NCBI GenBank assembly: GCA_947642635.1
Contig: CANRTI010000001.1
Coordinates: forward strand, 4,975-68,974
DNA from: an uncultured Mycoplasma sp.
GTDB taxonomy: Bacteria > Bacillota_I > Bacilli_A > RF39 > UBA660
Length of the DNA stretch: 64,000 bases
Direction of reading: 5' to 3'
Both the position numbers and the translations under genes were made by a program. Each line of letters starts with the position of its first letter. Position 1 is the first letter of the stretch. Shown in pieces: positions 13,397 through 23,110 of this stretch. Below the pieces are notes generated by a model. The model did no database searches, was not told the origin of the DNA, and worked only from the letters and a program-made list of their open reading frames with translations.

Positions 13397-15286
13397 TTAG
13401 TTTTTAGCAAAATAATAACTTAAAGTATAACTTATTTCATAATTACCATCAACATTAGGAGTTAATGACGTAATATCAAAATCACTATTTAATGGATTAT
13501 TTGGTAATACTTCTAAATCACTAGTAGTTGGATTATCAACACTTTCATTATTATTTCTCATAAATGTATTAATAGCCCCAGCTATTTCAAATAATTTATT
13601 TTGCATATTTGTAGCACTAGTAATAGCAATATCATTAATGCCAATTAAATTATTATCAATATCATACTCAAGCATATCAGGAGTAATTATTAATTTATTA
13701 GTAATTGTAATATCCATTTTATTTTCAAAATCTGGATTAATACCCATAACAATATCTAAATTAGGATTATCAACCTTGCTATAATTTAAGCTTTCAATAG
13801 CCATATAATTATATTCTTGAGCAAATGAGAAACTTCTAATTAATAAATAATAATTATTAGTTGTATCATATTCTAAGAAATAATCATTAAACTCTTCTTT
13901 AGTCGTTGGATATTCATTATTGTTATTTTTTAAAATCGAACTCAAGACAGGGTGTAAAACAACACTTCCACCAGAAGAACTACTAGATGTTAGCTTTGTA
14001 ATCATTTCGTTAGAAACAATACTACCATAAGATGTAGTTAATAAGTTTCTAAAAGTATTTTCCATATTAGGTTTTTCATCATATGATAAACGAATTGGAC
14101 TATTAGCAACTTGATGAGCATAATCAGATAATGCACTAGTTGTATCAATAACAATTAAATTATTATTAGCTATATATCTAAATCCTTTAATTGTATTAGC
14201 ATTAGTATCATTCATAATATAAGTTATACCAACATCATGACTTATTAAATTAACATAATTAATAATTTCAGTTACTTTACTAGTATTATTAGGATATGGA
14301 TATTTCTTTAAATAATATTCAAAAATTTCATTTATTTCAGCTGTATCAGTTGTACTAAAATATAACATAGCTCTACTAGTTGTATTCTTACTAGCATTAT
14401 CAGTTCTTGCGTAACCTTCTAGATTATCTTCGGCTGTAAATGTATAAGTGTTACTATCTTTATCATACATTGGTTTAATACCAGGTAATTTATAAACAGC
14501 TAAACCAGATCCATCTAATTCTTTAATCGCATCAGCTGTTTGATATTTATCTTTGACATAATTTAAAATCATTCCAGAATATGGAACTCTTGAATGTTCT
14601 TCAACATATTCTTCTAACCAATTATTAAATATTTCAACAATATCAGTATCAGGTTTTAAATCATCAATACTAATAGTTAAAGTTTTTTTATCAGGAGATA
14701 TGCCACTTCCATCTTCAACAACTGGATATTTTATTTTATATTCTCCATAAGTCATAGAAATATTACCAGGAGTATGATTATATAAAAATTCTTTTTCGCT
14801 TCCCACTTGTTCCCGAATTGAAACAGGTATTTGGATTTTTTCAGTATCAGGTTTACTTCCTTGTAAAGTAGAAATTGTACATTTTAAATTAATAATTGTT
14901 GTTACATTACTAGAACTATTAAATGTTACTGTAGCTATTCTTCCTGTATTATCAATTGTATAATTAGCTGGTAGTCCAGAATAAACACAACCATTTGGAA
15001 TAGTAAATTTATAGGTATCACTGGCATTTCCTAATCCAGCAGTATTTCTTGTAAATTCAAAAGAAGCATAAGTATAAGTTGGTTTAGGATTAAATAAAGA
15101 AACTTTTAAATCGTTTTTAGTTAAAGTATATAATTTAGAGTTATAAGCTAGGACATCATCCGTTTGATCATAATATTTTGAATGAGTAGTCGAGAAACTA
15201 GAAAAATTAAGAATACTTAAAACGAGTAAAGTATAAATAATTACTCTATGAATTGATTTTTTATGTCTTAGATTATTTTTTTTCAT
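13397..15286 (-). CDS. Large secreted hypothetical protein (629 aa), last gene of the SipW cluster
   Basis: It has an N-terminal signal-anchor ending SSFSTTHSKYYDQTDD, which resembles the SipW-cognate ends of its neighbours. I recognised no other motif. Confidence 0.7.
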   Translation of the reverse strand: MKKNNLRHKKSIHRVIIYTLLVLSILNFSSFSTTHSKYYDQTDDVLAYNSKLYTLTKNDLKVSLFNPKPTYTYASFEFTRNTAGLGNASDTYKFTIPNGCVYSGLPANYTIDNTGRIATVTFNSSSNVTTIINLKCTISTLQGSKPDTEKIQIPVSIREQVGSEKEFLYNHTPGNISMTYGEYKIKYPVVEDGSGISPDKKTLTISIDDLKPDTDIVEIFNNWLEEYVEEHSRVPYSGMILNYVKDKYQTADAIKELDGSGLAVYKLPGIKPMYDKDSNTYTFTAEDNLEGYARTDNASKNTTSRAMLYFSTTDTAEINEIFEYYLKKYPYPNNTSKVTEIINYVNLISHDVGITYIMNDTNANTIKGFRYIANNNLIVIDTTSALSDYAHQVANSPIRLSYDEKPNMENTFRNLLTTSYGSIVSNEMITKLTSSSSSGGSVVLHPVLSSILKNNNNEYPTTKEEFNDYFLEYDTTNNYYLLIRSFSFAQEYNYMAIESLNYSKVDNPNLDIVMGINPDFENKMDITITNKLIITPDMLEYDIDNNLIGINDIAITSATNMQNKLFEIAGAINTFMRNNNESVDNPTTSDLEVLPNNPLNSDFDITSLTPNVDGNYEISYTLSYYFAKN

Positions 15287-15306
15287 ATTAGTTCCTCCTT
15301 ATGCCC

Positions 15307-21116: not shown

Positions 21117-23110
21117 TATTTACCACCATTACTTTTATTTTTAGGAGTAAGTGTTAATTTTAATTGTAATTCTTCTGATTCTAAAAATTTATCAAATAAT
21201 TCAGCATTATTCATCATTGCCAAATCATCTGCTGTAAGTTCTTGTTCAGAATAAATTACTGTATTATGATAACCACAATCTAAACAATCTTCAGTACGAC
21301 CTGTAGCACTTTCGTTTACTACAAAGCTATTTGGATCATGTCCATGATCTTCATTATCTAATTGAATGCCGCACTCATTACAACTTACTACATAACGCCA
21401 ACAAACAGTTGCTGAACCAACATTTTGCCAGTCTTTCCTAACATTAGTATGTTGACATACTAATTCTTCTTCTTTTGTTTGACCACAGCCATCGTTTTCA
21501 CAAGCATAAATTATCTTATTACCAGAAGGAGTTCCAGCATCCCAATTATGTTTTTGATTATAATTACTGCCACATGCACAAGCAAGATGTTCATGATCAA
21601 TTGTTGAAGTCATTTGATAATTATGATTGTGATCTCTAACATTTAATCTTTCATCGCAACCTTTACAGCCGTTATACTCAATAATTTTACCATTAACAGT
21701 GTCATAATGAATTATACCATCAGATTCATGTTGATGAACAGGATTATATGGTCTTGTTTCAAACTTACCACAATGGCAATATCTAATTTCTTCATTGGGA
21801 TTATTAGGATTTATCATCCATTCAGTAAATTTATGAACATGTTCTTTAATATTCATCGGTTGGCCACAACCAAGGCAGATGTTATATTCGCAGAATACTC
21901 CTTTAATCATTCCATAATGAGTTTTATCATCAGAAACATGTTGATGAATTGGCGGTTTATATTGTCTTATTTCATACTCACCACAATCACAATATCTAAT
22001 TTCTTCATTAGGATTATTAGGATTTATTTGCCAGCTTCCCCACTTATGCGCATGATTTTTAACATTAATTTTTTCACCACATACACTACAAATATTGTAT
22101 TCACTATATACACCTTTTACATAACCATAATGTATTATTCCATCCGTTTTGTGTTGATGTTTTCTAGTTTCTACATTGCCACATGAACACTCTCTTTCTT
22201 CTAATCCTGTTTTTTTATTAAATGTCCATGGTCCATGTTGATGTACATGTTTTTTAACATTAATTTTTTTGCCGCATACACTGCAGATATTGTATTCACT
22301 ATATACACCTTTTACATAACCATAATGTATTACTCCATCAGTTTTATGTTGATGTTCTCTAGTTTCTACATCACCACATGAACATATTCTTTCTTCTAAT
22401 CCGGTTTTTTTATTAAATGTCCATGGTCCATGTTGATGTACATGTTCTTTAATATTCATCGGTTTGCCACAACCAAGACAAATATTATATTCGCAGAATA
22501 CTCCATTAATCATTCCATAATGAGTTTTATCATCAGAAACATGTTTATGAACTGGTGTTGAAGTAGGTTTAACTGTTGGACTTGGTGTTGATGAAGGTGC
22601 TGAAGTAGGTTTAACCGTTGGGCTTGGTGTTGAAGTTGGTGTGGGATTAGGAGTAATTGGCGGTTTAGGTATTACAGGAGGTTCAACTGGTCCAATTGGC
22701 TGATTTGTTGGACTTGGTGATGCTGTTTGGTTAGGTGATACTGTTGGAATTGGGCTTGGAGTAAGATCATTTTGAGCAATTAAATTTTCAACAATCCCAT
22801 TAATGTTCGGAATTATTTTGTCCATATTATCCATAATTTCTTTTTCAACATTCTCACTTTTGATATTTTGGACATTTTTTAAGATTTGTTTAGAATTTTC
22901 ATAGCCTTTTATTATCCCATTTTCTAATTCTGGTGAAATACTTTCTATTCCATATTTATTTTTAAAATTACTAAGATGTTTTTGATAACGAGAATTGTTT
23001 TTCGCATCTTCAACAGAACAATGTCCAAGAACTAAAAAACCTATAGCCAAAGCAAAACATGCTATTCCTTCTTTAGTACTCTTTTTTATTTTTTTCAATT
23101 TATTTAACAT
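21116..23110 (-). CDS. Secreted/membrane-anchored protein with a Pro/Thr/Ser linker and about 5 tandem Cys/His-rich zinc-ribbon-like repeats
   Basis: It has an N-terminal hydrophobic segment (IACFALAIGFLVLGHC) and a PSPTVKPTS linker repeat. Units of about 65 aa follow the pattern H.H…HYG…G…EYN.C..CG…N.K.H.H…W..N…E.R.C.CG..E.R. Confidence 0.75.
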   Translation of the reverse strand: MLNKLKKIKKSTKEGIACFALAIGFLVLGHCSVEDAKNNSRYQKHLSNFKNKYGIESISPELENGIIKGYENSKQILKNVQNIKSENVEKEIMDNMDKIIPNINGIVENLIAQNDLTPSPIPTVSPNQTASPSPTNQPIGPVEPPVIPKPPITPNPTPTSTPSPTVKPTSAPSSTPSPTVKPTSTPVHKHVSDDKTHYGMINGVFCEYNICLGCGKPMNIKEHVHQHGPWTFNKKTGLEERICSCGDVETREHQHKTDGVIHYGYVKGVYSEYNICSVCGKKINVKKHVHQHGPWTFNKKTGLEERECSCGNVETRKHQHKTDGIIHYGYVKGVYSEYNICSVCGEKINVKNHAHKWGSWQINPNNPNEEIRYCDCGEYEIRQYKPPIHQHVSDDKTHYGMIKGVFCEYNICLGCGQPMNIKEHVHKFTEWMINPNNPNEEIRYCHCGKFETRPYNPVHQHESDGIIHYDTVNGKIIEYNGCKGCDERLNVRDHNHNYQMTSTIDHEHLACACGSNYNQKHNWDAGTPSGNKIIYACENDGCGQTKEEELVCQHTNVRKDWQNVGSATVCWRYVVSCNECGIQLDNEDHGHDPNSFVVNESATGRTEDCLDCGYHNTVIYSEQELTADDLAMMNNAELFDKFLESEELQLKLTLTPKNKSNGGK
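21551..22549 (-). repeat. Tandem intragenic DNA repeats (about 195 bp units) encoding the Cys/His modules
   Basis: Near-identical stretches recur about 190 bp apart, for example AAATGTCCATGGTCCATGTTGATGTACATGTT at about 22220 and about 22410. Confidence 0.7.

Follow-up and report, generated by a model that had tools for sequence, protein, structure and literature searches.

A two-SipW operon in an uncultured member of the Bacilli as a candidate gene cluster for a TasA/BsaA-like surface fibre

What do seven closely packed genes, two of which encode SipW-type signal peptidases, make together? The question is raised by a stretch of DNA of 64,000 nucleotides (nt), hereafter the window, from an uncultured Mycoplasma sp. 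(assembly GCA_947642635.1, contig CANRTI010000001.1, positions 4,975 to 68,974 of the forward strand), in which seven minus-strand open reading frames (ORFs) occupy positions 13397-23110. In transcription order they encode a 664-amino-acid (aa) protein with Cys/His repeats, the signal peptidase SipW-1, a 214-aa protein, a 990-aa protein, the second peptidase SipW-2, a 201-aa protein and a 629-aa protein. An earlier reading of the letters, made without database searches (the sequence-only reading), had proposed these genes as an operon for a novel extracellular fibre or matrix; all seven ORFs were confirmed, and its overall interpretation is partly supported by the analysis that we report here. 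We propose that the operon probably encodes a SipW-dependent, TasA/BsaA-like surface fibre that is assembled by donor-strand exchange, and we hold the roles of the individual subunits in such a fibre with much less confidence than this general reading.

The seven genes form a real operon. The intergenic gaps are -1, 112, 106, 2, 10 and 20 nt in transcription order, and a near-identical operon (99.96-99.99% DNA identity) is present on metagenome contigs of several samples. Two sigma-70-type promoter-like sites, TTGACA-18-TATAAT and TTGACA-16-TATAAT, each agree with the consensus at 12 of 12 positions; such consensus sites were found only 5' of the first operon gene, and they are followed by a GGAAAGGG/GAGG ribosome-binding site and then by the ATG at 23110. 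At the other end, the hairpin and U-run that overlap the stop codon of the 629-aa gene are likely to mark the end of the operon. A strong stem-loop directly 3' of the 214-aa gene (dG -29.2 kcal/mol, z -6.2 against shuffled sequences) has no U tract, and may be an attenuator or mRNA-stabilising element that sets the ratio of the subunits. A search of positions 11000-24400 against Rfam gave no RNA family match. The starts that yield 214 and 990 aa are those used in public assemblies and agree with the family alignments, and the GC content of the window is about 26%.

The cluster is also conserved as a unit, as was to be expected if the claim of a single system held. A pattern scan with one genome per species gave 255 relatives, and the best 80 matches represented 77 distinct loci, nearly all of them in uncultured gut or rumen metagenome-assembled genomes (MAGs) labelled Bacilli, 'Tenericutes', 'Mollicutes', Erysipelotrichaceae or Clostridia. 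We compared the window proteins with the ORFs of these 77 loci by phmmer. A sipW gene was found in 76 of the loci and at least two in 63; among the 14 with fewer than two, 13 reach a contig end, and only one uncut locus (L036) truly lacks sipW. The order sipW1-214-990-sipW2-201 is collinear in about 48 of the 77, and this synteny exceeds chance. Clostridia-type loci have, in place of the 990-aa gene, a gene for a 300-370-aa member of the 214-aa family.

Both peptidases scored above the cutoff of TIGR02228 (106.3 bits for SipW-1 and 81.2 bits for SipW-2; cutoff 51.85) and below that of NF046067, the Bacillus SipW equivalog (116.6 and 71.4 bits; cutoff 190 bits). By these scores, both are SipW-type enzymes (MEROPS S26B), yet neither is an orthologue of Bacillus SipW. 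The SGSMEP and THRI motifs and Lys-rich C-terminal tails that the sequence-only reading had described are present in both, together with a GDN motif and two transmembrane segments per peptidase, one N-terminal and one C-terminal. The catalytic residues of SipW-1 are Ser59, His98 and Asp117. A Ser-His arrangement, rather than a Ser-Lys dyad, is a hallmark of the SipW/archaeal-ER-type (ER, endoplasmic reticulum) signal peptidase I. SipW-2 is 33% identical to SipW-1, and its catalytic residues are intact. All 73 SipW-1 and all 65 SipW-2 orthologues that were compared from related loci (138 in total) retain the catalytic Ser and His, and identity is 49% within the SipW-1 group, 40% within the SipW-2 group and 28% between the groups. 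Because the Ser and His are invariant and identity is higher within the lineages than between them, SipW-1 and SipW-2 are old paralogues, both of which have apparently been kept active. Several related loci, namely L007 (16707-17243), L025, L034, L049 and L022, contain one more ORF, of about 180 aa and with weak similarity to SipW (E ~5e-4), 3' of the 629 homologue; this window lacks it.

The 214-aa protein, which we regard as the putative major fibre subunit, belongs to a very large family. It had 743 relatives in a word-indexed protein search, none of which carries a Pfam domain or a name, and an exhaustive profile search with its family reached 8,385 representatives of 50%-identity clusters at E<=1e-3 and 1,756 at E<=1e-30. 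The 201-aa protein also belongs to this family, at some distance (BLASTP E 5e-6 and 28% identity over 138 aa with the 214-aa protein). In an alignment of 227 members, the conserved positions are G24-T25-x-A27-K28-Y29, D37, A-R-V-A-K-W and F55, and further along A-P-G-T-x-G, E101, W165-x-W167, D179, D185-T-x-L-G and Q206; the 214-aa protein also bears a C-terminal ATQ motif. The stretch right after the predicted cleavage site (K28, Y29, D37, ARVAKW) is 82-100% conserved in these members. Conserved charged residues are K28, D37, K43, E101, D179 and D185, and to judge from their near invariance, K28, D37, E101, D179 and D185 could either serve as a Lys-Asp isopeptide set or bind Ca through the D..DT.LG loop. 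In a few of the related loci (L014, L018, L020, L028 and L035), the 214-aa homologue is tandemly duplicated, and some of the ORFs there are 390-400 aa long.

The ends of the signal peptides point to SipW. Cleavage (shown here by an arrow) is predicted at GTYA↓KY (A27↓K28) in the 214-aa protein, at VTYS↓RY in the 201-aa protein, which also carries a D.AR.AKF motif and a C-terminal ATQ and whose family has the consensus V-T-Y-S↓[KR]-Y, and at THS↓KY in the 629-aa protein. Mature TasA begins at A28 in structure 8aur, which places its cleavage at GGGTWA↓AF. The three predicted sites thus have the small residues at P3 and P1 and the aromatic residue at P2' of the TasA site GTWA↓AF, and their motifs are conserved in orthologues. 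It has been reported that the aromatic P2' explains the dependence of TasA on SipW, and that TasA is a poor substrate for the standard type I peptidase (PMC10269814). The Tyr-containing motifs SGTYAKYT, VTYSRYIT and TTHSKYYD, which had been pointed out before, are therefore real and conserved; they had been assigned to three large proteins, and their carriers are in fact the two small proteins and the 629-aa protein.

Next, we considered the structure of the small proteins. Modelled by AlphaFold2 (AF2) from the alignment of its family, the 214-aa protein reached a mean predicted local distance difference test score (pLDDT) of 72.7 and a predicted template modelling score (pTM) of 0.65. The top match of this model in the PDB, and the sole one at E<=1e-3, was the TasA fibre 8aur_A (E 7.4e-5, prob 1.0), and the next matches were the donor-strand pilins CfaB and type 1 pilus subunits. 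Together with the cleavage motif, which matches that of TasA, this best match supports the earlier suggestion that the 214-aa and 201-aa proteins are TasA-like, at the level of the predicted fold and with a weak structural score that is weighed below.

The 990-aa protein begins with a lipobox-like LLLITSC. Big_2-like domains follow in its N-terminal part, then two cadherin-like domains, a middle that varies and, at the C-terminus, a jelly-roll domain. Both kinds of domain had been recognised by the sequence-only reading; the two cadherin-like domains stand above the Pfam cutoff, and Big_2 falls just below it. When the seven proteins were scanned against Pfam and NCBIfam with E values of up to 10, the only matches were the peptidases and these cadherin-like and Big_2 domains. 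Members of its family have 700-1,500 aa; conservation covers their first ~250 and last ~300 aa, and the part in between varies. The word-indexed search with the full-length protein found 162 relatives, which include the C-terminal domain; a query with the C-terminal 259 aa found no match, which we read as a miss of the word index and not as absence, given that negatives from fragment queries are untrustworthy in this search.

Is this C-terminal domain related to the small proteins, as had been claimed? BLASTP between the 214-aa and 990-aa proteins was not significant (E 0.27), and a hidden Markov model (HMM) built from the alignment of the 214-aa family (alignment A1), run against all window ORFs, did not detect the 990-aa C-terminus. 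Profile-profile comparison by hhalign, on the other hand, aligned the C-terminus of the 990-aa family with the 214-aa family at Prob 96.9% and E 1.6e-10 over 133 columns (95.5% in an earlier attempt). The alignment spans the LF, PGxxG, WxW and DxxDTxxG motifs and the last strand, and the domain itself reads LF, YPGAxG, WKW and DxxDTxIG. On this comparison, the domain is homologous to the 214-aa family, a kinship that BLASTP and HMMER miss. An AF2 model of the last 224 aa (pLDDT 85.2) matched jelly-roll capsid and tail-fibre domains; because TasA is itself a jelly roll (PMC9245690), this match is consistent with kinship to TasA, and it is unspecific.

The 990-aa protein had been proposed as a tip or an anchor, and its N-terminus favours the anchor. 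The N-terminal hydrophobic segment ends in L-[IL]-T-S-C, the Cys of which is conserved in at least 90% of 45 homologues, and the family carries the lipobox pattern [LVI][ASTVI][GAS]C at the end of the hydrophobic region. Since the conserved LITSC fits a lipobox, we read the protein as a lipoprotein, and a lipoprotein anchor is more likely, on these motifs, than a SipW substrate or a free tip. The S↓[KN]-F that follows the lipobox Cys would equally fit the SipW pattern.

The last gene of the operon has a nearly constant place. In 46 of the 48 collinear loci, an equivalent of the 629-aa gene lies 3' of the 201-aa gene and encodes ~360-1,200 aa, in most cases at least 500 (two of the 46 are cut by contig ends). 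They start with a signal peptide, and [ST]x[SA][KRLS][YF] occurs within the first 90 ORF residues of 43 of the 46, in a few cases outside the expected site. What the 629-aa protein has in common with the small subunits is the signal peptide and the [ST]x[SA]↓[KR][YF] motif alone (hhalign Prob 36%). Its family had no match in Pfam, a PDB profile search with its alignment (A3) gave nothing useful, and by hhalign it is unrelated to the 990-aa family.

The Cys/His protein contains 32 Cys and 37 His, and consists of a hydrophobic segment at the N-terminus (LVLGHC), a linker rich in Pro, Thr and Ser, about five repeats of 65-70 aa with the pattern HxH..CxxC..HxH..CxC, and a basic C-terminal tail. 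Family models in Pfam and NCBIfam gave no match to it, and the metal binding that the sequence-only reading had ascribed to it is hypothetical. In most Bacilli-type loci, a large Cys/His-rich protein, usually with a classical lipobox, is encoded 5' of sipW1; phmmer detected it in 11 loci only, and elsewhere it is too divergent. Most of these position-equivalents have the classical form (..G/A/S-C), and the LGHC of the window copy is atypical. Between 21703 and 22522, the gene contains tandem DNA repeats of 195-213 bp with 73-91% matches (85-91% identical). The HxH..CxxC..HxH..CxC modules are encoded by these repeats, which suggest that the array expanded recently or evolved in concert. There is no sign of a sortase-assembled pilus in the operon: none of the seven translated ORFs can be seen to end in an LPXTG-type signal (a dedicated motif search was not run), a hydropathy scan found no C-terminal hydrophobic segment on the five non-peptidase proteins, and the sole sortase of the window sits in an unrelated 8.7-kb insertion.

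If the fibre reading is true, then the following mechanism can be proposed on the model of TasA and BsaA (PMC9674648, PMC10151520, PMC7395162, PMC11580942). The 214-aa, 201-aa and 629-aa precursors would be exported by Sec and cut by the SipW enzymes at T-x-[AS]↓[KR]-[YF], leaving an aromatic P2' as in TasA. The freed N-terminal strand of one 214-aa subunit would enter the jelly roll of the next, so as to build the shaft. The 990-aa lipoprotein, with its Ig-like stalk, could take the last donor strand in its terminal acceptor domain and in this way tie the fibre to the membrane. The sipW2-201-629 module may supply a minor subunit and a TapA/AbpB-like initiator or tip, the 629-aa protein, which would give only its N-terminal strand and a large unique domain. 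The hairpin 3' of the 214-aa gene might keep the shaft subunit in excess, the two peptidases might share out the substrates between them, and the Cys/His-repeat protein, as a putative lipoprotein, could be an accessory surface component.

Several results weigh against this reading. The sequence-only reading had suggested a check with the models TIGR04088 to TIGR04090 and Peptidase_M73, and this check was negative: TIGR04088, TIGR04089 and TIGR04090 gave no match at E<=1 among the window proteins or the members of alignment A1, and neither Peptidase_M73 (PF12389) nor NF046066 gave one at E<=1 among 46 members of the 214-aa family. B. subtilis TasA, used as a positive control with a sequence identical to that of PDB 8aur, was matched by all of these models, with 129 bits for PF12389, 514 bits for NF046066, 38 bits for TIGR04088 (cutoff 19) and weak matches to TIGR04090 and TIGR04089. 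A PDB profile search with alignment A1 found nothing, and hhalign of A1 with the single TasA sequence aligned the C-terminal ATQ strand alone, not significantly (E 0.012, Prob 3.7%). The template modelling score (TM-score) between the 214-aa model and 8aur_A is only 0.34, and the TasA monomer structures 5of1 and 5of2 match the model at E 0.2-0.4; the low TM-score probably comes at least in part from the low-confidence first 30 residues of the model, where the signal peptide lies and the putative donor strand begins. TasA is absent from the 50 best PDB matches of the 990-aa C-terminal model, and this model looks complete, so that an open acceptor groove is hypothetical. Membership of the family is no guarantee of polymerisation, because BsaB, a TasA-like paralogue, forms only dimers (PMC11580942). 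In addition, the fibre is a prediction from the genes of an uncultured organism, as are polymerisation and the subunit roles; which peptidase would cut which substrate, and what the 201-aa, 629-aa and Cys/His proteins may do, is suggested by gene order and motifs only.

We also considered the possibility that the small jelly-roll proteins do not polymerise by donor strands at all, and that they decorate or mature the 990-aa and 629-aa proteins as monomers or dimers, in the supposed mode of BsaB or camelysin/CalY, within a non-filamentous coat or set of adhesins. The low TM-score and the lack of a match to any sequence model would agree with this, as would the dimers of BsaB and the cadherin-like and Big_2 domains, which are typical of adhesins. 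However, the only PDB structure that the 214-aa model matches significantly is TasA in its fibre form, with donor-strand pilins next in rank, and the strong conservation after the cleavage site is what would be expected of a donor strand. The strong hairpin 3' of the 214-aa gene, which suggests that one subunit is made in excess, and the tandem 214-aa gene duplicates in five related loci also speak for a polymer, and we consider the non-filamentous coat improbable. Another question is whether the seven genes serve one structure. They could be two adjoining SipW modules, Cys/His-sipW1-214-990 and sipW2-201-629, which build separate structures and share neither a fibre nor a heteropolymer. Each peptidase gene does lie directly 5' of one small TasA-like gene, the peptidase lineages are old and distinct, and the two small proteins share just 28% identity over their 138 aligned residues. 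The modules are nevertheless never apart in untruncated loci, their order is fixed across Bacilli and Clostridia MAGs, promoter-like sites occur 5' of the first gene only, and just 2 nt separate the 990-aa gene from sipW2; we give independent modules a similarly small chance.

A further explanation, which we consider very improbable, is that general signal peptidase I, together with Lsp, processes the secreted proteins, and that the SipW copies do another job, for example a regulatory one. The SipW of B. subtilis is reported to have a second function in its C-terminal part, and both copies here have long Lys-rich C-terminal tails. Archaeal TasA-like pili, moreover, use a generic peptidase (PMC9245690). 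Against this stand the catalytic Ser and His, which are invariant in 138 of 138 orthologues, and the linkage of sipW to the 214-aa family in 76 of 77 loci, as well as the aromatic P2' of all three predicted substrates, the feature that makes TasA a poor type I substrate (PMC10269814). Thus, we still favour the SipW-dependent fibre.

A more specific form of the fibre reading would take the cluster as the mark of a distinct class of heteropolymeric fibres, anchored in the membrane and widespread among gut Bacilli and Clostridia, with three defining features. Each of the co-evolving SipW paralogues would handle its own subunit class, so that assembly is ordered, with the tip or initiator before the shaft; the giant lipoprotein with its TasA-like acceptor domain would terminate the fibre in place of a sortase/LPXTG anchor; and the near-invariant K28, the first residue after the predicted cut, would form a Lys-Asp isopeptide lock with E101 and D185, unlike the Asn-Lys lock of BsaA. 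That all of these hold jointly seems unlikely to us, and we offer the class as a tentative proposal.

The flanks of the operon gave no further members (Table 1). A gene in public assemblies that encodes a 75-aa Gly/Tyr/Pro-rich protein with one hydrophobic segment lies at 23342-23569 on the minus strand, just 5' of the operon promoter; we rejected it as a member because the promoter-like sites lie downstream of it (the related loci were not searched for this ORF). A 177-aa upstream ORF was rejected for the same position of the promoter-like sites and because it was found in none of the related loci. Downstream of the operon by 84 nt, a Clp-like double-AAA+ ATPase of 705 aa is encoded at 11195-13312 on the minus strand, and it scores far below all NCBIfam cutoffs for ClpA, ClpB and ClpV. 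Just one of the 77 loci has this ATPase close to the cluster, so that it is probably outside the system; we rejected it as an eighth operon gene on this ground and because a terminator-like hairpin precedes it. Neither the ATPase nor the 177-aa ORF is thus conserved with the cluster. An origin as a spore appendage or from a prophage has no support in the flanks, where the neighbours are ScpA/ScpB and P-type ATPases. Elsewhere in the window, a stretch of ~8.7 kb (2430-11123) is absent from the same-species metagenome contigs L001-L004, where 2429 directly meets 11124 and the two ends overlap by 9 bp; the stretch resembles a small integrative mobilisable element that brings its own sortase-substrate pair.

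Table 1. Features of the operon and of the inserted stretch, numbered from the first nucleotide of the window.
Feature	Position	Strand	Remark
664-aa Cys/His-repeat protein	21116-23110	-	first gene of operon
SipW-1, 217 aa	20463-21116	-	SipW/archaeal-type signal peptidase I
214-aa TasA-like protein, putative major fibre subunit	19706-20350	-	ORF reaches 20386
990-aa protein	16627-19599	-	ORF reaches 19638 from GTG
C-terminal domain of 990-aa protein	16654-17148	-	hhalign homologue of 214-aa family
SipW-2, 233 aa	15923-16624	-	second SipW-type signal peptidase
201-aa putative second TasA-like subunit	15307-15912	-	BLASTP match to 214-aa protein
629-aa secreted protein, without recognisable domain	13397-15286	-	last gene of operon
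Two sigma-70-type promoter-like sites	23273-23244 and 23190-23163	-	upstream of Cys/His gene
Stem-loop, perfect 22 bp	19627-19686	-	directly 3' of 214-aa gene, before 990-aa gene
AT-rich hairpin, 12-nt arms, then 8 U	13365-13405	-	overlaps 629-aa stop codon
Tn916-type integrase	9707-11059		in 8.7-kb stretch
Viral_Rep-like protein	7260-8246		in 8.7-kb stretch
FtsK/SpoIIIE-like protein	8236-9453		in 8.7-kb stretch
Sortase	4389-5138		in 8.7-kb stretch
417-aa secreted protein, C-terminal transmembrane segment and KKKK tail	3110-4363		in 8.7-kb stretch

TasA-type fibres have so far been understood from a few cultured Firmicutes and archaea, and this cluster suggests that the kind has a far larger branch, which annotation does not see. 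Members of this branch, for which Pfam and NCBIfam have no model, are common among uncultured gut Bacilli labelled 'Tenericutes/Mollicutes' and among Clostridia MAGs, and the cell surfaces of these lineages are poorly known. If the fibre model is true, then it provides a candidate adhesion or biofilm organelle for these lineages, a test case for the choice of substrates by SipW paralogues, and an example of a donor-strand polymer anchored by a lipoprotein independently of sortase. A family model made from alignment A1 could annotate thousands of 'hypothetical proteins'. The finding is unsurprising in principle; it yields a large unannotated family of candidate fibre genes and a two-peptidase architecture that can be tested.

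How new is this architecture? The sequence-only reading had called it undescribed. In the literature, we found no description of a two-SipW cluster of such composition, and we did not find described either the combination of a fixed SipW pair, a TasA-like domain on a giant probable lipoprotein and the accompanying 629-aa and Cys/His proteins, or a very large 214-aa subfamily that escapes all current family models. However, TasA/BsaA-family genes are already known to be widespread, often beside signal peptidase genes and possibly with several paralogues per operon (PMC11580942). Because of this report, the system is not categorically new, and we regard it as a variant of the known SipW-TasA/BsaA kind.

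The closest known system is sipW-bsaA-bsaB-bsaC of C. perfringens, in which BsaA requires SipW and polymerises by donor-strand exchange (PMC7395162; PMC11580942). Both operons have a SipW-type gene directly 5' of small TasA-superfamily proteins, more than one paralogue of these, and a large secreted accessory protein, and both would use sortase-independent donor-strand polymerisation, which is a prediction for the present operon. They differ in that two ancient SipW paralogues are found here in place of one, in that the family domain is fused to a probable lipoprotein of ~1000 aa, and in that the operon here lacks a two-component system. The accessory proteins differ too, with a VWA domain in BsaC and no known domain in the 629-aa and Cys/His proteins. 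TIGR04090, the BsaA model, does not match the small proteins, and the 227 members do not have the N-E-K isopeptide triad of BsaA (donor Asn, acceptor Lys, catalytic Glu) in this form: position 37 of the putative donor strand is Asp, no Asn is conserved in that strand, and the core has no conserved acceptor Lys. From the conserved positions, Lys28-Asp185 with Glu101 is conceivable as an alternative lock pair.

The next closest system is tapA-sipW-tasA of B. subtilis (8aur; PMC9674648, PMC10151520). It shares with the present operon a dedicated SipW, the cleavage pattern G-T-aromatic-A↓x-aromatic and a jelly-roll subunit, the fibre form of TasA being the best structural match of the 214-aa model; the C-terminal ATQ strand is the part that aligned with TasA, at the insignificant score given above. 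TapA complements TasA by a strand (PMC10151520), and the 629-aa protein is likewise an accessory protein that could donate only a strand. Unlike TasA, the small proteins show no sequence homology detectable by the HMMs PF12389 and NF046066. The operon has two peptidases and seven genes, its hosts are uncultured gut Bacilli and Clostridia MAGs of ~26% GC, and the putative anchor is a giant probable lipoprotein with a TasA-like domain, whereas TapA has a macroglobulin-like fold. Similar features are found in the archaeal bundling pili AbpA/AbpB (PMC9245690). Their operon has no dedicated signal peptidase, and differs in taxa and in other content. Nevertheless, their TasA-like jelly-roll pilin is also recognisable by profile or structure comparison only, and the proposal for its larger partner is likewise that it donates a strand to initiate the filament and serves as an adhesin.

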